Below, piece after piece: positions 1,645-16,681 of a stretch of 42,371 bases of DNA (its first letter is position 1; every line of letters starts with the position of its first letter). The position numbers and the translations under genes are program-made. The notes under the pieces were generated by a model. It was not told where the DNA came from, ran no database searches, and saw only the letters and a list, made by a program, of their open reading frames with translations. The DNA comes from a virus (Duplodnaviria; Heunggongvirae; Uroviricota; Caudoviricetes), in the IMG/VR virus record IMGVR_UViG_2778261056_000006, positions 1 to 42,371 of that record. One strand, given 5' to 3'.

Positions 1645-4600
1645 TTATGCCTGAGTACGCAGCGCTTCAAGGCGGCGCAGGTCGAAGTCGTTCAGTTCGT
1701 CGGTGTAGTCAGCAGTGATTGGCGCTGGCCATTCACCTGTGTCGAATCCGGTTGCGATATTGCGCATCGCTTTGCGGTACTCGAGCATACCCAGCTCCAG
1801 TAGTTCAGCGGATGCCTCGATGATGGCGATCCAGTGGTAGTTCTCGTCTTTGTTGACGAAAATCCAGAAGAACTGATCCAGCGCTGCGGTTTCGCAGTAC
1901 ATAGCCGCGCTCAGGTGATAATCACGTTCAATAATTTCCCGGTGTAGCCTGGCGCGCAGGCTTTCCTGCTTAACATTCCACATGCTGATGGTTTTCAGGT
2001 CTGCACCTATACGCACGCCATCCAGGTCGATCTCAAGGTCAGGGCGCACACGAACTTCCAAGCCCGTCTCCTCGTCAAAACCAAAGTAGCTCACCTCAAC
2101 GGCTCGGCTAGGGTGGGTCAGCAGCATGCCGGCGGTCGGGTGTGCCAGAAGCGCTTTTTGAATATTCAGCGCGGTGCTCAGCTGCTGGCGGGTGACCAGC
2201 ACTTTTCCTTCCGGGTTATCGCGCCAGGCATCCAGCAGTTCGTCGGCAAATACGGCATCTGGTTTGACTGCCTTCACGGCCTGGATCATGTCTGCTTTGG
2301 TACCGGACACTTTCAGTGGTGCCGGTTTCTGTGCTTCCTGAGCCACAAGGTCAGGGTTGATGATTGCCAACTGCTCCAGCAGCGCGTCACGGCTGCCGCT
2401 GGTTTTAACCGGCGGCGGCAGGGTGGCGTTGTACTCTTTAATGCATGCCTTCATTGCCGTCGCCGTCTGCTTCTGGTCACCATCAATACGCTGGAAGTCA
2501 GCTGGCAGCGCCATATAGTTCTGTGCCGTTTCTTCCAGGTTAGCGCCAAGCGGAACCTGCGGCGGCAGGGTGGCGTTGTACTCTTCCAGTAACACCTTGA
2601 TGTCGTCGGCAGACAGCAGCGCCGGCAGGCTGGCATTGTGCTCATCGATAAAGGCGCGCAGGGTCGCGGCCGTTGTGAATGCGCCTTCAGGGATCACCGG
2701 TTCAACGCTGAATTCTGCGTCCAGTAGTTCAGGCTGCAACGCCAGCGCATGCACCAAGTTGCCCATGTCCAGCACCGCTGAGCGCTCTTTGACGATGGTT
2801 TTCTCTACGTGGCGCGCATTGAAGTACATCAGCGAAACGCGCGCATCTTTCACCTGGGTTGAGCTGATGCCGTTGGCGGCGTGGTAAACCTCGTTTGGCA
2901 GCCCTTCATAGCGGCCTGGCTCGAAATAAGCGGGATAAACAACAGCCGGTTCGTCAGATTGCGCTTCTGGCTCGGTTTGTGCTGCAACTGGTTCGGTTTG
3001 GCTTACAGAATCGCTATTTTTGGCGACAGAATCCGTATTCTGGTTTACATCGTCCTTCTGGCTGGTATCTGACTCTTCACCAGACTCCAGACTGCTTTCG
3101 CCTGGCTGTACTTCATCACCAGCTTGTTTTTCATCACTGACAGTTTCTTGAACCTGCACATTGCTGGTGGTCTCCGTAGCCTTTTTCGTGCCATGAGTTG
3201 CTGAGTTCTGCAGCAAAGCCGTAACGTCGAATATTCCGTTGCCGACATTTTTAACCAGTTCTTGTTCGACTTTCTGCGGTTGTGCTGCCGCTTCCTCTGC
3301 GCGGCGGCGTGCTCCTTCTTCACGCACGCGTTGCAGGTTCTCTTCGTGAGTGCAGAAGGATTTGCGCGGAGACTCCTTACCTTCAGGTTGGGGAATTTCC
3401 TGTGCTGCGGGTTCAGCCTCATGCAACGGCAATAACTCGACCGCGGAATTGAACGCGGCTGTCATGGTCTGGTTAACAAATTCCAGGTGAGCGACAGGAG
3501 TTAAATGAATATTTTCCGGTGCGATACGTACCAGGTTAAAAATAGCCGTGCGGTTAACACCCAGAACGCCTGGCTGATTGCGCAGGATGTTGCTCCATGA
3601 TTTCCATGGTTCTTCTTTTTTGGTCACGATTTCTTTAGCGCGACGAAGAATGCTGCCCGGGATCTCGAAGTGGTTGAAGTCCATAGGCAGAAGGGCACAC
3701 GCAATCTCTAAATCGAGAGTGTCCAGTGTGTGGTGTGCGTCAGGTCCACGGTCAGTGACGTAACCGCCGTCGGCATTAGTGCCGGAATCAGTACGCTGCA
3801 CACTACTGATGCGATTACCGGCGGCCCATTCGCGAACGAGGATACCGCGGTCGATGTGATCTGTAGCGAACCACAATTTCAAAAACTGGATTAAGGTTGC
3901 GAGTTCAGGGATTTTTCCATCGACAGGGAAGACTTTCTTAACGGCATTCACGACTTTATGAATATCGTGCTCAATGGCTTTTTTGAATGCTTCCACATTC
4001 TCAGCTGCCAGCAGCAGGTTCTGGACGTACGCGTCATCGGTGTCCATCTCAAGGCGGACAATCTCATTTTTCTGCCCTGCGTCGATGTGATAGAGATATT
4101 CACCATCACCGATGAACTGAGCCAGTACGCGCTGGCGGAATGGCAGGGTGGCAACAACGATCAGGTTCGGTTGCTGTGTCTGCTGGGATTGCTCTTCGGT
4201 ATCGACTTCACCATCAACGACGCCACCTTCTGCCCGGCCGTTCTCGTCGGTCTGGATACCGTCCTCAACAGTGAGATCTTGACCCGTTGTAACGTCAGCA
4301 GCGTTGCTGGTTTCAGTTTTGAGCAACTGCAACTTACCACTGCGCCAGTCTTCTACCAGTTGATTGCGGTCACCGGCATCGGTGTTCACCCAGTCAGACA
4401 TGAATGCAGCGATCAATCTTGGTTCGTGCTCTTCGTCTGGTGTGAAAATGTCCTTAACCGCCCGAATCATTTTCCACTCAGCATTCAGGCTGAGTTTGGC
4501 GGTCGCGGGCACATCGTTCCTTGCCACAAGCAGGCTATGGAGATATGTATTGCCTTCATCCAGTGACATTTCGCTGGCAGCCAACTGCTGCTCTTTAGTG

Positions 4601-6518: not shown

Positions 6519-6550
6519 AAAAAACCCGGCGCAGTGGCCGGATTATTTAC
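6519..6550. terminator. bidirectional intrinsic terminator between convergent genes
   Basis: A6 run, stem CCGGC(6526-6530)/GCCGG(6537-6541) with 6-nt loop, then AT-rich tail; U-run available on both strands. Confidence 0.55.
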
Positions 6551-7154
6551 TATTCTGAGGTGCAGGTGCAGGTGCAGGTGCAGGTGCAGGTGCAGGTGCA
6601 GGTTGTATTATCTCGACAGGTTTTAGATGAGATTGCACTTGGGGCAACGCGAGAATTACGGCAAGCAATGCTAAAATGGCACCAACCATCCACTGAAGAG
6701 TGGCTGATGTCGTCTTTAAACCATCGATCTGCCCTTTTAATCCTTCGATTTGTCCTTTTAGGCCAGTAAACTCACCATTAACCCCTGAAATCTGAGCTTT
6801 AATTTCCGACATAGAGGTATTCATTGCAGAAAACTGCTGCGCTTGAAAGGCCCTAAATTCAGCCATTTCACGCCGCATCTCGGCGGCCACTACATCCACC
6901 TCTGCTTTGTTCTGAGCAAACTTGGCGTCAAGTTCTTCCCTTGAGATACCCACAGCATCTACCTCAGCATCTTCGCCTTTAACAATGGTTTGACTTTTAG
7001 ATAATGGATTCGTTCTACTTTTCCCCATTTTTGTTAAAATCGGGTTTTTCGGTCGAATATTTACCACATCCGCTTTTTCATGATATGCGGGCATGTGAAA
7101 TGCGTCAACTTTGACGTCAGGCGACGAGGTTTTGCGAATTGAGGCTCCATCCAC
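6543..7154 (-). CDS. membrane-anchored coiled-coil protein with C-terminal (Pro-Ala)n tail
   Basis: 203 aa; heptad-like GLKGQIEGLKGQIDGLK, one predicted TM helix (WMVGAILALLAVILAL), then PAPAPAPAPAPAPAP encoded by a hexanucleotide repeat; GTG start at 7154 (alternative ATGs at residues 21 and 43). Confidence 0.55.
   Translation of the reverse strand: MDGASIRKTSSPDVKVDAFHMPAYHEKADVVNIRPKNPILTKMGKSRTNPLSKSQTIVKGEDAEVDAVGISREELDAKFAQNKAEVDVVAAEMRREMAEFRAFQAQQFSAMNTSMSEIKAQISGVNGEFTGLKGQIEGLKGQIDGLKTTSATLQWMVGAILALLAVILALPQVQSHLKPVEIIQPAPAPAPAPAPAPAPQNSK
6559..6602. repeat. hexanucleotide microsatellite (GGTGCA)7 = minus-strand (CCTGCA)n encoding (Pro-Ala)n
   Basis: Seven perfect tandem copies read directly from sequence, inside the 3' end of the 6543-7154 CDS. 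Confidence 0.9.
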
Positions 7155-7505: not shown

Positions 7506-7916
7506 TTATTCCATATCACCCTTAATCCGCCGCCCCATATACTTGGCGTACAGTTCATCGAGTTCTTTCAATCGTAGAGATACGATCCGCAACATGTTCT
7601 GTTGTTCTTCTTCGTTTGGGAGTTGATTATAGAGTTCCAACAGTCTCCGTTCGTCGTGTCTCAAACCGTCCTTAGCATCCACGTCCTGACCTAGAACCCA
7701 CTCAAGACTTACGCCTAGCGCATCGGCAAGTTTTATTGCTGAGCTTTTTCCTATCGCTCCTCTGACAAACCAGTTGTTGACTGATTGTGCGCTCACACCA
7801 CAGATTCTCGCTATATCCGCTTTGGATATGCGCTTCTTCTCGATGATTTCATTTAACCGCCGAACCTGCGGGTTATCTGTTTGGTGTGTGTTTTTTCTCA
7901 TGTACAAGAGTATCAC
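7506..7916 (-). CDS. XRE-family HTH regulator, paralogue of the prophage repressor
   Basis: N-terminal HTH (ISKADIARICGVSAQSVNNWF), C-terminal segment nearly identical to the adjacent repressor (LELYNQLP.EEEQQNM.RI.SLRLKELDELYAKYM.RRI.GD); ORF starts at GTG 7916, first ATG at 7901. Confidence 0.65.
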   Translation of the reverse strand: MILLYMRKNTHQTDNPQVRRLNEIIEKKRISKADIARICGVSAQSVNNWFVRGAIGKSSAIKLADALGVSLEWVLGQDVDAKDGLRHDERRLLELYNQLPNEEEQQNMLRIVSLRLKELDELYAKYMGRRIKGDME

Positions 7917-7920
7917 TTAG

Positions 7921-8304
7921 CTAATCAGCATCGCCCCTGATTCTGCGATTCATGTACTTGGCATATAGTTCATCGAGTTCCTTCAGACGCAGGGAGAAGA
8001 TCCTTATCATATTCTGCTGTTCTTCTTCCGGTAACTGTCTGTAGAGCTCCAGAATACGTTGTTCATCAGGCTTAAGGCCATCCTTCTCTCCAACATCCTC
8101 ACCAAGTAGCCAGGGGACGGATACCCCAGCAGCATCAGCAACCGCTAATGCAGAACTTTTGCTGATTCTTCCTGTTTTGAACCAACTGGAAACAGCTTGC
8201 TTACTGACGCCAGCAACCCTGGCCATCTCTGTTTTAGAGAAACCTTTCCGGTTCAGTTCTGTAAGCCTGGAGATCAGCCCAGTAGTCATTGTGTTTTCGC
8301 TCAT
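7921..8304 (-). CDS. CI-like prophage repressor (short XRE-HTH type, no S24 peptidase domain)
   Basis: HTH (FSKTEMARVAGVSKQAVSSWF) plus C-terminal oligomerisation-like domain; divergent from the Cro-like gene across an operator region; in-frame ORF extends to 8388 but that would bury the operators in coding sequence, so ATG 8304 (or 8289) is the likely start, possibly leaderless. Confidence 0.6.
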   Translation of the reverse strand: MSENTMTTGLISRLTELNRKGFSKTEMARVAGVSKQAVSSWFKTGRISKSSALAVADAAGVSVPWLLGEDVGEKDGLKPDEQRILELYRQLPEEEQQNMIRIFSLRLKELDELYAKYMNRRIRGDAD

Positions 8305-8313
8305 TTCACTAGT

Positions 8314-8330
8314 GTAAATGATTGCTTTAC
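8314..8330. promoter_or_regulatory. operator site OR-a (GTAAATGATTGCTTTAC)
   Basis: 17-bp dyad GTAAA-N5-GCTTTAC, one of three copies in the window, just upstream of the repressor start. Confidence 0.55.
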
Positions 8331-8351
8331 CAGTAGGTAGGCATTCATTGA

Positions 8352-8380
8352 TTGACTCATTGGTAAAATGATGCTTTACT
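8352..8380 (+). promoter_or_regulatory. PR-like rightward promoter overlapped by operator OR-b (GTAAAATGATGCTTTAC at 8363-8379)
   Basis: TTGACT(8352-8357)-17 bp-TTTACT(8375-8380), followed by SD AAGGAGG and ATG 8402; operator overlaps spacer and -10. Confidence 0.6.
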
Positions 8381-8401
8381 TTTTCCATCTAAGGAGGTCC
8401 T

Positions 8402-8626
8402 ATGACTGGTATTGAGAAAGCTATTCAAAAGTTTGGCACAGGTGCGGCACTCGGAAGAGCGCTTGGATTTTCAAAAATGACAATTTCCAACTGGAAGAAA
8501 ACTGGCATTCCGCCCGATCACATTCGCTCTGTTTTTGAGCTTACGGGAGTCACCCCGCATGAGTTGCGGCCTGACTTATATCCCAATCCAACCGATGCCT
8601 TACCAGTGCAAGAAACGAGGGCATAA
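8402..8626 (+). CDS. Cro-like HTH regulator (YdaS-type)
   Basis: 74 aa; HTH (AALGRALGFSKMTISNWKK) and HELRPDLYP motif typical of Rac YdaS-type Cro analogues; strong SD; divergent from repressor. Confidence 0.7.
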   Translation: MTGIEKAIQKFGTGAALGRALGFSKMTISNWKKTGIPPDHIRSVFELTGVTPHELRPDLYPNPTDALPVQETRA

Positions 8627-13014: not shown

Positions 13015-13216
13015 TGTCTGAAAGGTAGCATTACCAAGTCTATGGTTGCCTAGCTCAGTCAGGCTTGTATTTGGTTGCTTAGCAATCAACTCATGCGACA
13101 TGAGCGGGATCTTTCTAATCATCATTTTCGGTAAATGATTTTGGTTGCTTGGTTGACAAAATCGAGAAAATGCGAAAATATATGGTTTACGAATTCCAAA
13201 AAAAGCGAAACTTGAA

Positions 13217-13867
13217 ATGAGCGACAACCAGTTAGCACCTTGTTGGGAATTTCAGCCTTACCTTGCTGAAAGCAATGTTCGTCAGTTGTTAGCGGAAATT
13301 GCTAATGTACTCGAGCAATTGTACTACCACAAACACACACTGGACAGTAACTGGTCCGAAGGTGTAAGGGCTTATGATTGGGTCAGAAATCATTTGATTC
13401 AAAGTGAAGGGACACTGCCGGGTCTGGAAATGGTTTCGAAGGGACTGGATTATGTGGTTGCGTTAAATAAAGTGCCGCTGCAGTTCTCCAAAGATTGCAT
13501 TAATAACCCGAAGAAGAAGCATCGCCTTCTTCGAAATAGGGTGGAGCATGAGCAACTTTCATTGTTCGGTGAAACTGAAGCCGAGCAAGATATTACATGG
13601 CGGATCATCGCCGAACCATTTTTATCCGATGAAGAAGATGGCGAGCTGGAATCAACATTGCCTCGCTGGGAAGTGGCTTTAGTTGGGTTTAACGCATATG
13701 GTGCCCAGATCAGTATGGTTTCACACCAATCTACTGCTTCAGCGCCGCTTATGTCTCTTGATACCAACACTCTTCCGGATGAAGCTGAGATTGGCAAAGC
13801 CTCTCTTCGCCGCCGTAAAAAAGATCAAGATTTGGATGTGAGCAGTAATGGAACATCAAGTGAATGA
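13217..13867 (+). CDS. unknown protein, candidate effector/toxin partner of the downstream HTH-peptidase
   Basis: 216-aa ORF with no motif I recognise; 3' end overlaps the next gene by 20 nt; preceded by TTGACA -35-like element and 12-bp direct repeats TTTGGTTGCTT. Confidence 0.55.
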   Translation: MSDNQLAPCWEFQPYLAESNVRQLLAEIANVLEQLYYHKHTLDSNWSEGVRAYDWVRNHLIQSEGTLPGLEMVSKGLDYVVALNKVPLQFSKDCINNPKKKHRLLRNRVEHEQLSLFGETEAEQDITWRIIAEPFLSDEEDGELESTLPRWEVALVGFNAYGAQISMVSHQSTASAPLMSLDTNTLPDEAEIGKASLRRRKKDQDLDVSSNGTSSE

Positions 13868-14951
13868 CTTTGCTGAGTATCGTGGGGATAAGCTCAAATT
13901 AGCCAGAATGGCTGTTGGGCTCTCCTGCGAAGAGTTAGCGGAGAAAATTGGTAAAACAAAACAATTCGTTAGCAAATTGGAAAAAGGGTTTAAACCATCA
14001 GAACAGTTGTTAGAATTAATCTCATCTGCGCTGATGATTAAATCTGATTTCCTATTTACTGAACGAAAATATGCTTTAGAAAGCGATGTTTGCCATTTTC
14101 GGAGTAAAAAATCGAGAACCCAAACATTAACCAATAGTGTTCTGGCAAGGGCGGAGATTCTTAACATTATAATCTCTGCCGTTGAGGGAGAAATCGAGTT
14201 TCCTGATGTTTTCATACCTGAGCACCCCGGTGCTGAATTGCTGACTCCAAATGATATTGAACGTGTAGCGGAAGACTGCAGAAGAGCATGGAACTTAGGG
14301 CTGGGACCTATATCCTCAATGGTCAAACTGGCTGAGAGTTTGGGGGTTATTGTTGCTCATGTGACAGGAGTGGATGACCGCGTAGATGCTTTTACTGTTC
14401 ATAACAACAGGCCAGTAATCATCCGAAATAACGTCAAAAAGAGTATATGCAGATTCCGATCAGATTTAGGTCACGAATTGGGGCACTTGGTTATGCACGA
14501 AGGTATAACCACAGGAGATAAAGTGACTGAATCGCAAGCGGATCGTTTTTCAAGCGCGTTGCTAGTTCCTCGATTGTCCTTTATTAAAGAGTTTCCCCGT
14601 ATACGAGGAAGACAGTTCGATTGGAACGCCCTAGTTGAGTTTAAGCTTCGGTGGAAGATTAGTCTTAAAATGTGCATTTACCGAGCAACAACTCTAGGCC
14701 TGCTGACGCAGGAGCAGGCAAGAACAGGTTATATGCATTTGAACTCTAAAGGATATACGAAAGTTGAACCAGGAGATGAATTTATTCGCCCGGAAGAACC
14801 GAGTATGTTAGCTGAGGCGATTGAAATGCTGGATGATGCAACATGGATGAGCATTCTCATGAAAACTGGTTTAAGCCAGGAGTTGGTTAGGGAGTTATTC
14901 TCGGTAAACCGCCCACTGTCAAATCCAAGAAATCTACTTCAACTGGTTTGA
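13848..14951 (+). CDS. fused XRE-family HTH + ImmA/IrrE (COG2856, Peptidase_M78-type) zinc metallopeptidase
   Basis: 367 aa; N-terminal HTH (LKLARMAVGLSCEELAEKIGKTKQFVSKLEKG); HExxH zinc motif HELGHLVMH in the C-terminal domain. Confidence 0.8.
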   Translation: MEHQVNDFAEYRGDKLKLARMAVGLSCEELAEKIGKTKQFVSKLEKGFKPSEQLLELISSALMIKSDFLFTERKYALESDVCHFRSKKSRTQTLTNSVLARAEILNIIISAVEGEIEFPDVFIPEHPGAELLTPNDIERVAEDCRRAWNLGLGPISSMVKLAESLGVIVAHVTGVDDRVDAFTVHNNRPVIIRNNVKKSICRFRSDLGHELGHLVMHEGITTGDKVTESQADRFSSALLVPRLSFIKEFPRIRGRQFDWNALVEFKLRWKISLKMCIYRATTLGLLTQEQARTGYMHLNSKGYTKVEPGDEFIRPEEPSMLAEAIEMLDDATWMSILMKTGLSQELVRELFSVNRPLSNPRNLLQLV

Positions 14952-14967
14952 CTCAAAGCTTGTAATA

Positions 14968-14994
14968 AACCCGCTATATGCGGGTTTTTTCTTT
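14968..14994 (+). terminator. intrinsic terminator
   Basis: CCCGC-tatat-GCGGG followed by T6. Confidence 0.7.
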
Positions 14995-15113
14995 CTGGTA
15001 GCGCGCTGTGGTAACGCTGTGCCTCCAGCGCTCGCTGAGGCGCTGGTGCGTGCTAATTTGCCGGAGCTTTGTCAGCAGAAACAAATAGCGGCGTAATAAA
15101 ACATTGCTAATTC

Positions 15114-15141
15114 AACCCGCTACGGCGGGTTTTCTTTTTTT
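15114..15141 (+). terminator. second intrinsic terminator with the same stem sequence
   Basis: CCCGC-tacg-GCGGG followed by TTTTCTTTTTTT; coordinates approximate. Confidence 0.6.
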
Positions 15142-15203
15142 AATACTGACAGAAAATTAACAATTTGTGCTCTTAAAACGTTGATCATTTCCGTGCATAG
15201 GTA

Positions 15204-15223
15204 TACTGTATAAAAACACAGTA
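15204..15223. promoter_or_regulatory. LexA box (SOS operator) upstream of dinI homologue
   Basis: TACTGTATAAAAACACAGTA, a near-consensus CTGT-N8-ACAG site, 19 nt upstream of the dinI ATG and overlapping the likely -10. Confidence 0.8.
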
Positions 15224-15241
15224 CATGCAATGGAGGCTATT

Positions 15242-15475
15242 ATGAAAGTTGAATTAACCATTGATCGCATGAAAGAACTTCCTAAAGGCGCAGTACCAGC
15301 ACTGGAGAAAGAACTGCTTAAGCGCCTGAATGATCACTATGACAATTGCAGGCTCACAATCCGCCGTGCCGGGTCCGATGGGTTAAGTGTTTTTGGTGGT
15401 GACAAGGACGATAAAAAGAAAATTGAATCAATCCTCCAGGATACCCGGGAAAGCGCTGACGACTGGTTTTATTAG
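15242..15475 (+). CDS. dinI: DinI-family protein
   Basis: 77 aa from ATG 15242 (SD GGAGG 5 nt upstream); aligns along its length with E. coli DinI (…LSV.G..K.DK..I..ILQ.T.ESADDWF). Confidence 0.85.
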   Translation: MKVELTIDRMKELPKGAVPALEKELLKRLNDHYDNCRLTIRRAGSDGLSVFGGDKDDKKKIESILQDTRESADDWFY

Positions 15476-15478
15476 AAT

Positions 15479-15505
15479 TGCGCTTAAGGCTGGCGCGCAT
15501 TTTTC
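15479..15505 (+). terminator. possible weak terminator after dinI
   Basis: TGCGC...GCGCA stem with long loop followed by T5; weak. Confidence 0.3.
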
Positions 15506-15592
15506 AGAATACCGCAATTTGCGTAACCCTCTGATGCTGCTGCCGACAATCTTTAATCGCGTCTGTTAGTCGCTCGAAGGGAGAACATAAAT

Positions 15593-15841
15593 GTGAGTGA
15601 TTCAGCTTTGCAAACGTCAGAAGACAACTGGTATGACATTGTAAGAAGGTCTGACGGCTGCGTGGTGTTTAGCTTTCCTTCATCGGGCAGGCATCTAATT
15701 TATCGCGTCAATGGCATGGTTTCTATGCGGCCTTTGCTGGATGATGAAGAGGTCTTTACTCCTAATGGTTTTATGCAATTTATCCGCCGTCTCGGCTACC
15801 GGGTAACACCACCTTCTGATAATATGAAATCAACGGTCTGA
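15593..15841 (+). CDS. hypothetical protein downstream of dinI
   Basis: 82-aa ORF with GTG start and SD GAAGGGAG; no recognisable motif. Confidence 0.45.
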   Translation: MSDSALQTSEDNWYDIVRRSDGCVVFSFPSSGRHLIYRVNGMVSMRPLLDDEEVFTPNGFMQFIRRLGYRVTPPSDNMKSTV

Positions 15842-15875
15842 ACAACCGTAACCTACTGCGCCACGGAGAGAAACC

Positions 15876-16475
15876 ATGGCGCACGAACTACAACTCATTA
15901 AGCAGTCCTCAGGAATTCTGATCCCCGCTACGCCGGAGACCAGCGATATTCTGCAATCAAAAATCAAACTTGGTGCCGTATTGGTAGCCGAATTTCGTCA
16001 GGTGAGGAATCCAGCATTCCATCGCCGTTTCTTTGCGCTCCTGAATCTCGGGTTTGAATACTGGGAACCCACCGGTGGGGCGATTTCTTCCAATGAACGT
16101 AAATTGGTGACCGGGTACGCTAAATTCCTCGCGGCATTTGGTGGAAACGAAGGCGCACTGCTGGATGCTGCCGAGCAGTATCTGGACCGTATCGCCGATA
16201 AGCGCGCCGGTAGTATCAGCATCTGCAAATCCTATGACGCATATCGTGCATGGGTGATCATCGAGTCTGGCCACTACGACGCCATACAGCTTCCCGACGG
16301 CACCCTTCGCAAACACCCCCGCAGCATTGCCTTTGCCAACATGGACGAAACCGAGTTCCAGCAGCTGTACAAAGCCGCGCTCGATGTTCTGTGGCGCTGG
16401 GTATTGTCCCGGGCATTCAAGGACCAGCGTGAAGCGGAAAACGCCGCATCGCAGCTCATGAGCTTTGCGGGGTGA
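15876..16475 (+). CDS. hypothetical nin-region phage protein (possibly DUF1367-type)
   Basis: 199-aa ORF with SD; family suggestion from recall only. Confidence 0.5.
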   Translation: MAHELQLIKQSSGILIPATPETSDILQSKIKLGAVLVAEFRQVRNPAFHRRFFALLNLGFEYWEPTGGAISSNERKLVTGYAKFLAAFGGNEGALLDAAEQYLDRIADKRAGSISICKSYDAYRAWVIIESGHYDAIQLPDGTLRKHPRSIAFANMDETEFQQLYKAALDVLWRWVLSRAFKDQREAENAASQLMSFAG

Positions 16476-16681
16476 TGGCGATGAAATATTCCTGGTTCCA
16501 CCATCACGAATGCACAACCGATCAGGCCGACGAGCTGGTGGCCAGTTACCGTCGTCGTGGCGCCACGGTAGAACGTAGCCTGAATCGCGACAACATCACC
16601 TGGACTATCAGCGCAAAATTGCCTGAATGCGAGCATCCGGCGCGTACACCAAGAACCTTTCGACAAAAGGTCTGGGGGTGA
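16472..16681 (+). CDS. hypothetical small protein
   Basis: 69-aa ORF whose start overlaps the previous stop (ATGA). Confidence 0.4.
   Translation: MMAMKYSWFHHHECTTDQADELVASYRRRGATVERSLNRDNITWTISAKLPECEHPARTPRTFRQKVWG

Follow-up and report, generated by a model that had tools for sequence, protein, structure and literature searches.

A putative Gifsy-type SOS-sensing module with a GfoA-like antirepressor gene in an mEp237-like Escherichia coli prophage

The dinI operon and its LexA box

The DNA analysed here, referred to below as the window, is the complete 42,371-nucleotide (nt) viral sequence IMGVR_UViG_2778261056_000006 (Caudoviricetes). On its plus strand there are, in this order, an intrinsic terminator, a LexA (SOS) box with a promoter, a dinI gene, a small open reading frame (ORF) with a non-ATG start and a homologue of irsA. 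The Gifsy prophages have an operon of the same order, dinI-antirepressor-irsA, which is repressed by LexA and preceded by a terminator-like palindrome, as described by Lemire, Figueroa-Bossi and Bossi in 2011 (PMC3121763). A preliminary description of the stretch had proposed a LexA-controlled dinI-antirepressor operon like those of Gifsy. All parts of this proposal that can be tested in the sequence hold: the gene order is that of Gifsy-1/-2/-3, and every sequence feature that defines a Gifsy-type operon is found in the window. Very probably the region serves a Gifsy-type lambdoid E. coli prophage, close to coliphage mEp237, as its SOS-sensing module, in which an antirepressor relays the SOS signal to the prophage repressor. 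It is important to note that the system is not new; the window holds an unannotated member, an E. coli prophage copy of the Gifsy induction switch published in 2011.

The LexA box TACTGTATAAAAACACAGTA (15204–15223, plus strand) ends 18 nt upstream of the dinI ATG. It overlaps the −10 element of a putative sigma-70 promoter, PdinI (15181–15207, plus strand), which we read from the sequence as a −35 element TTGATC (15181–15186), a 15-nt spacer and a −10 element TATACT (15202–15207), so that the earlier claim of a CTGT-N8-ACAG box lying over the likely −10 is borne out. This 20-mer is the sole site in the window with at most three mismatches to the consensus TACTGTATATATATACAGTA, against 0.01 expected, and at the same threshold any site at all was found in one of 100 shuffled sequences. 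The core motif alone is weak evidence, since CTGT-N8-ACAG is present twice in the window and 0.63 copies are expected by chance. The second copy, CTGTTCATAACAACAG at 14395–14410 inside rmrA, has more than three mismatches to the 20-mer consensus and was judged a chance occurrence. Compared with TACTGTATATAAACACAGTA, the part of the Gifsy-1(14028) promoter primer pp752 that holds the LexA box, the box of the window differs at one of 20 positions. The promoter layout TTGAnn-N15-TATACT is likewise common to Gifsy-1 and Gifsy-2 (TTGAAT-N15-TATACT) and to most of 37 related loci. A generic promoter scan reported no promoter around PdinI, because it demands a spacer of 16–18 nt and is therefore blind to one of 15. 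In Gifsy-1 and Gifsy-2 the LexA box lies 19 bp upstream of dinI, compared to 18 nt in the window, and nalidixic acid induces the gene 23-fold and 14-fold (PMC8072944).

Upstream of PdinI lies a strong intrinsic terminator (15114–15141, plus strand), a stem-loop at 15114–15131 with seven pairs, five of them GC, followed by TTCTTTTTTT. Its fold has a free energy of −12.8 kcal/mol (z-score −4.17), and none of 200 shuffled sequences was equally stable. The terminator is predicted to insulate the SOS promoter against transcription from upstream. Gifsy prophages also have a terminator-like palindrome directly 5′ of the LexA box (PMC3121763), and the element of the window aligns with the palindrome of Gifsy-1 and Gifsy-2.

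The first gene of the operon, dinI (15242–15475, plus strand), has its true start at ATG 15242 and not at ATG 15230. The Pfam DinI match spans the whole domain (E=3.6e-23), in agreement with the full-length alignment to E. coli DinI noticed earlier. In addition, phrog_189 (RecA filament binding protein DinI) matches at 1.2e-24 and RefSeq names the product 'DinI family protein'. NCBIfam PRK10597 aligns to residues 1–76 with 83.1 bits, below its equivalog cut-off of 111, which argues for a phage DinI paralogue and not an orthologue of the chromosomal gene. Within the conserved C-terminal motif ETWESADDWFY, residue 69 (15446–15448) is Arg (CGG) in the window and in SEN34, while it is Trp (TGG) in mEp237, Gifsy and most relatives. 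The third gene (15876–16475, plus strand) is the irsA homologue, a DUF1367 protein (Pfam E=2.5e-91), and the Gifsy-1 irsA deletion primer pp644 matches 15870–15907. In Gifsy-1 and Gifsy-2 of LT2, dinI is followed by a 73-residue gene with a GTG start and then by a DUF1367 gene.

A single nucleotide polymorphism in the −10 element of PdinI-gfoA silences this promoter and abolishes phage production in Gifsy-1 of D23580, and repair of the change restores phage (PMC5322425). This is a precedent for a module that is present but non-functional, with a silent promoter or in a cryptic prophage, its box and genes being relics. We regard such a state as extremely unlikely for the window, where no damage is seen in TATACT, the box, the Shine-Dalgarno sequences or any of the three ORFs. 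The module is carried by 52 of 5,426 complete E. coli genomes (about 1%), and in 50 of the 52 these elements are identical or nearly so. Moreover, the isolated, viable and plaque-forming mEp237 has the module at 98.4% DNA identity (15030–15900); identity to Salmonella phage SEN34 over the same interval is 85%. The 3.3 kb tested around the module (13200–16500) are 100% identical to the chromosome of E. coli 2022CK-00450, in which RefSeq labels the three genes 'DinI family protein', 'hypothetical protein' (WP_016066207.1) and 'DUF1367 family protein'.

The GfoA-like gene and its linkage to dinI

The small gene between dinI and irsA (15593–15841, plus strand) encodes 82 amino acids and starts with GTG, the Shine-Dalgarno sequence AAGGGAG (15577–15583) lying 9 nt upstream. 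A start-stop pair ATG-TGA (15591–15596) overlaps this GTG; it could compete with initiation and lower translation of the antirepressor. In SEN34 the gene starts with TTG and there is no ATG-TGA. In the Gifsy prophages induction requires the gene at this place (gftA in Gifsy-2; in strain 14028, gfoA in Gifsy-1 and gfhA in Gifsy-3), which is also sufficient for it, and its product binds the repressor in uncleaved form, the complex being probably A2B2 (PMC3121763). BLASTP of the 82-residue protein against GftA of LT2 (annotated STM2621.1n/STM1020.1n) gave no match, which had first suggested a non-homologous gene. This was overturned by the gfoA primers of strain 14028 in Table S1 of PMC3121763, which define the ends of gfoA. 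GftA was the wrong comparator, since GfoA and GfhA are only distantly related to it (PMC3121763). The gfoA 5′ primer ATGAGTAATTCAGCTTTGCAAAA matches 15594–15614 at 20 of 21 nt and the 3′ tagging primer matches 15785–15821 at 36 of 37 nt. Across all 82 residues the protein shares 91% identity with Salmonella P0001, and the Salmonella relatives, P0001 included, begin with MSNSALQK, exactly as encoded by the gfoA primer. A profile of the GfoA-like family aligns colinearly with GftA (residues 5–68 against 5–70, E=3.2e-4, 23% identity). Judging from these matches, 15593–15841 is a homologue of the proven antirepressors GfoA and GfhA. It had been described as an unknown gene that is a candidate antirepressor. 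The candidacy stands, whereas 'unknown' should read unannotated: RefSeq calls the protein hypothetical (WP_016066207.1), it falls in PHROG 340, and it has no Pfam or NCBIfam family.

The GfoA-like family is narrow. A profile search over 1.84 billion representatives gave 40 matches only, that is, 40 representatives at 50% clustering, and among them there was neither a DinI fusion nor a link to other antirepressor families. PHROGs 340 and 1813 contain the GfoA-type proteins and PHROG 4847 contains GftA; each of the three carries the label 'unknown function'. A source name is given for 25 of 37 database relatives, and all 25 are called hypothetical or uncharacterised. The same annotation gap covers the gene of the window and one at 3151–3372 of the related locus L002. 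The practical value of our results is therefore in annotation, as proteins now listed as hypothetical can be labelled GfoA-type antirepressors. Recognition of this type shows how about 1% of complete E. coli genomes, and also many prophages of Citrobacter, Enterobacter, Klebsiella and related genera, sense DNA damage. It also matters for how quinolones and other SOS-inducing drugs induce prophages.

GfoA homologues and the dinI-irsA region have been noted before in Escherichia, Citrobacter, Klebsiella and Enterobacter (PMC3121763). In the phage records examined, the GfoA-like gene always lies between dinI and a DUF1367 or nin-region gene, and the position of the small ORF is likewise occupied in mEp237, SEN34, PHB10, Chris1, SPN3UB and Klebsiella phages. 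Scanning a single genome for each species gave 30 loci with a GfoA-like gene in other Enterobacteriaceae (Citrobacter, Enterobacter, Klebsiella, Kluyvera, Atlantibacter, Leclercia, Raoultella and others). Here dinI is directly upstream in 24 loci and DUF1367 directly downstream in 26, while an upstream LexA box (at most four mismatches) is present in all 30. The box ends 16–20 nt before the dinI ATG in each of the 24 loci that have dinI. In 37 distinct sequences conservation exceeds 90% in the arms TACTGT/ACAGT while the central spacer and flanks vary, a pattern that is expected under selection for LexA binding. The six loci without an intact dinI keep the box as well, 80–330 nt upstream of the antirepressor gene: four have no gene between box and antirepressor (80–171 nt), one has a decayed dinI and one a different small ORF. 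This indicates that the antirepressor, and not dinI, is the constant LexA-controlled cargo. Box, gene order and homologies are thus observed in the window and conserved across its relatives, and the invariance of the LexA box in 30 species-level loci is a clean comparative confirmation of the 2011 model that opens no new question.

Between dinI and the antirepressor gene there is a 117-nt spacer (15476–15592, plus strand) that contains a weak hairpin in addition to the Shine-Dalgarno sequence. The hairpin with a T-run that had been noticed between the two genes does exist (15479–15497, followed by CATTTTT), and a terminator scan reports the site at 15479. It is also conserved in Gifsy-1, Gifsy-2, SEN34 and some Citrobacter prophages. 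If it terminated transcription at 15479–15503, dinI would be the only SOS gene and the antirepressor gene would be expressed only from phage early transcription. We consider this very unlikely, and the hairpin is not credible as a terminator. Its free energy is −8.6 kcal/mol (z-score −0.47) and 60 of 200 shuffled sequences fold as well, compared to −12.8 kcal/mol, a z-score of about −4.2 and no shuffle as stable for the nearby real terminators at 14967–14987 and 15114–15131. The T-run has five T only and starts after a CA dinucleotide. The spacer has no stable GC-rich stem with a direct U-tract that is conserved: the T-run is broken in C. sedlakii and the stem is gone in C. pasteurii and C. 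werkmanii (T-run or stem is missing in loci L015–L017), the antirepressors of these close relatives being 90–94% identical to that of the window. Other relatives have spacers of 41–63 nt or overlapping genes, without the hairpin, and the four loci in which no gene separates box and antirepressor gene also speak against dinI as the only SOS gene. Furthermore, the hairpin of Gifsy-2 (LT2) differs from that of the window by one loop base, and in Gifsy-2 the PBAD promoter placed upstream of dinI induces the prophage, gftA being the sole gene required (PMC3121763). Weak folding, loss in relatives and read-through in Gifsy-2 together suggest that the hairpin is at most a mild attenuator. With no credible terminator or internal promoter and with short-spacer relatives, we infer that dinI and the antirepressor gene are probably co-transcribed, as has been seen, in an SOS- and LexA-dependent manner, in Gifsy phages (PMC3121763, PMC5322425, PMC8072944).

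The spacer has some features of its own. Over a block of 145 nt (15431–15575), comprising the 3′ end of dinI and the spacer, the window has about 89% identity with Gifsy-1 and Gifsy-2 of LT2. Spacers of this long class (the window and loci L002, L007, L010 and L013–L026) are more conserved than their flanks: relative to the LT2 prophages the body of dinI seems markedly more diverged and the antirepressors are barely alignable. From E. coli to Enterobacter and Raoultella these spacers keep the motifs TCGC..GCG and GCGTC..GTCGCT without change. Such a spacer could be a recombination junction, or else a regulatory site that has gone unrecognised. With RNAalifold, 13 spacers yielded seven pairs and no covariation, and the minimum free energy of the spacer is no better than that of shuffled sequences (z-score +0.61). 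In Rfam nothing overlaps the spacer, the five weak matches (E 0.3–0.87) all lying at 14964–15140. An 11-codon upstream ORF (ATG 15534) was rejected, as it is without a Shine-Dalgarno sequence and is not conserved in Enterobacter-type spacers.

Repressors and the predicted relay of the SOS signal

The immunity region lies about 7 kb upstream of the operon and has two tandem repressor genes on the minus strand. The operator-proximal one (7921–8388) is GfhR-like and can be read as a 155-residue form from 8388 or a 127-residue form from ATG 8304. The second (7506–7916), a paralogue of the GfoR/GfhR family, has 136 residues, or 131 from its probable start ATG 7901. Both carry a helix-turn-helix (HTH) domain only (HTH_3/Phage_CI_repr), and neither has a Pfam match to Peptidase_S24 at E≤0.01; the prophage repressors are thus without a cleavable domain, as the preliminary description had it. 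The gfhR primers match the first gene at both in-frame ATGs (19 of 21 nt at 8388 and 14 of 15 nt at 8304), and its two starts mirror the long and short forms of GfhR in Gifsy-3 (PMC3121763). The protein ends in ...AKYMNRRIRGDAD, compared to ...AKYMSRRIKGEGA in GfhR. With mEp237 gp39, whose annotation notes similarity to a regulator of S. Typhimurium 14028S, it shares 100% identity. We infer that this repressor is the target of the antirepressor. A divergent cro-like gene (8402–8626, plus strand; phrog_35 at 2e-19) begins 13 nt from the start of the long form. A gap of this size places the operators and the maintenance promoter within 8305–8401, inside the 5′ part of the long ORF, which matches the intragenic promoter reported for gfhR/gfhR* of Gifsy-3.

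Antirepressor and repressor also occur together in other genomes. A GfhR-like repressor is carried by 10 of 12 phages that have the GfoA-like gene, and a GfhR/GfoR-family repressor lies within 10 kb in 21 of the 30 genome loci. This co-occurrence is consistent with an antirepressor-repressor function in the window. Identities of repressor and antirepressor to those of the window are 100% and 98.8% in mEp237; the most distant phages are low on both, with 31% and 44% in Chris1 and 32% and 38% in SPN3UB.

Could the repressors be inactivated in another way? A protein with a Peptidase_M78 domain (ImmA/IrrE-like, HTH-M78; 13848–14951) is encoded 300 nt upstream of the promoter and might act on them as ImmA does on ImmR of ICEBs1, in which case the 82-residue protein would be employed otherwise, for example in recombination or repair as a partner of DinI or IrsA. 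There is hardly any probability for this, as the M78 protein is RmrA of the Rosmer system and the gene before it encodes its partner RmrT, the two being followed by a terminator of their own, and the pair is missing at this position in mEp237 and in most E. coli genomes with the dinI module. For a homologue of the 82-residue protein, genetic and biochemical work has shown that it suffices for induction and that it binds the repressor (PMC3121763), and among the early-region ORFs tested there is no other antirepressor of the Ant/KilAC type.

An antirepressor relay like that of Gifsy is therefore the reading we prefer. LexA control, co-transcription and repressor binding are known from the Gifsy experiments and by analogy should hold at this locus too. 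In the lysogen, LexA bound at 15204–15223 would occlude the −10 and start region of PdinI, and the terminator at 15114–15131 would keep transcription of the defence genes and of the early phage region from reading through. After DNA damage, active RecA would cause LexA self-cleavage and PdinI would fire, giving a single transcript of dinI, the 82-residue gene and the irsA homologue. The 82-residue protein would then bind the GfhR-type repressor (7921–8388), and probably also its paralogue (7506–7916). If this is true, the repressor leaves its operators without proteolysis, early promoters open and lytic growth follows. The switch would be reversible if LexA is replenished.

Several points weigh against this reading. 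The identity of the small gene to the characterised GfoA rests on 58 nt of primer sequence and on Salmonella homologues, and its C-terminal tail is ...PPSDNMKSTV, while the gfoA tagging primer implies ...PPSDI; this tail is variable across the GfoA-like family and of low confidence in the AlphaFold2 model. The model itself, with four strands and a C-terminal helix, reaches a predicted local distance difference test score of 64.9. Foldseek of the model against the PDB gave no match at E≤0.001, nor did a sequence search of solved structures with the protein. With moderate model confidence and no structural neighbour there is no independent structural support for a binding mode. The spacer hairpin with its short T-run could lower expression of the antirepressor, and the second repressor could alter or buffer the response. 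A whole-word search of the literature on mEp237 found no study of its induction.

Compared to Gifsy-1 (dinI-gfoA-irsA) and Gifsy-3 (dinI-gfhA-irsA) of ATCC14028, the window has the same operon layout, a box over the −10 and a non-ATG start of the antirepressor gene. The module is likewise placed outside the immunity region and downstream of the replication genes, and the repressors are likewise short, non-cleavable and of the GfoR/GfhR family. It differs in its E. coli host, its mEp237-like backbone, the GTG start, the length of 82 residues and the tail (...SDNMKSTV instead of ...SDI), and also in having two tandem repressor paralogues instead of one and the Rosmer pair inserted upstream. Gifsy-2 (dinI-gftA) has an identical operon architecture and about 89% DNA identity in the 3′ end of dinI and the spacer with its hairpin. 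However, GftA is only distant and belongs to another PHROG (4847 and not 340), and its repressor GftR is of another type (about 28–30% identical).

The same logic applies to Tum of coliphage 186 and AntC of N15, where LexA directly represses an antirepressor gene located away from the immunity region and the product of this gene binds a non-cleavable repressor. Tum is a fusion of 146 residues with a DinI-like second half (PMC3121763), whereas the window has separate genes in the opposite order; the likeness is drawn from the description of Tum. Rem of the Qin prophage of E. coli K-12, described by Ragunathan and Vanderpool in 2023 (PMC10448788), is also a small prophage antirepressor that acts on a short repressor of the DicA/Gifsy type, DicA. 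It was rejected as a relative, having no detectable similarity to the GfoA-family profile, and the neighbours of rem in MG1655 are hokD and ydfU and not, as in the window, dinI. Repressors of the Lambda CI/LexA type (Peptidase_S24) share RecA-coupled induction with the module of the window, although the S24 domain is found in neither repressor here. Unlike with Lambda CI, the signal would pass via LexA and the antirepressor, which is in principle reversible.

The second repressor and neighbouring genes

The second repressor is without an operator region of its own and lies 4 nt downstream of the first (19 nt from ATG 7901). The tandem arrangement also occurs in mEp237 and SEN34. Identity between the two proteins is 62%, the HTH halves reaching 48% and the C-terminal halves 77%. 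Prophages of C. youngae, C. sedlakii and Raoultella have one repressor only, in operator-proximal position, to which the 7506–7916 product is 99%, 98% and 94% identical, respectively; the antirepressors of the Citrobacter prophages with this sole repressor are 94–98% identical to that of the window (98% in C. youngae). To judge from these identities, one type of antirepressor evidently works with both types of repressor, much like the cross-reaction of GfoA and GfhA with GfoR and GfhR. The repressors differ mainly in the HTH half and are alike in the C-terminal half, so one LexA-controlled antirepressor may govern both. We put forward tentatively, and as rather less probable than its opposite, that it does so and that the captured orphan repressor either gives heterotypic immunity or acts as a sink. 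If this is true, the orphan would make the lysogen immune to a second, heteroimmune phage type, and this immunity would be lifted on SOS induction together with that of the prophage itself; as a sink for the antirepressor it would raise the induction threshold instead. Downstream of the repressor genes, the leftward operon encodes a protein of 203 residues (6543–7154, minus strand) with a C-terminal (PA)8 repeat, which had no family match in Pfam and PADLOC-type searches.

The Rosmer pair, a defence or toxin-antitoxin system, is inserted directly upstream of the SOS operon and its genes are not members of this operon. It consists of RmrT (13217–13867, plus strand; PADLOC 2.4e-26) and RmrA (13848–14951, plus strand; HTH and M78 peptidase; PADLOC 1.6e-106), followed by the terminator at 14967–14987. 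Some other E. coli genomes that do not carry the dinI module have copies about 80% identical. The DNA match of mEp237 to the window begins at 15030, with none shared 5′ of this position, and what mEp237 has upstream of dinI is just a small hypothetical gene. Between the two terminators, at 14998–15096, lies the 3′ fragment of a DNA methyltransferase gene, a pseudogene in RefSeq, which appears to be a scar of the insertion of the Rosmer pair.

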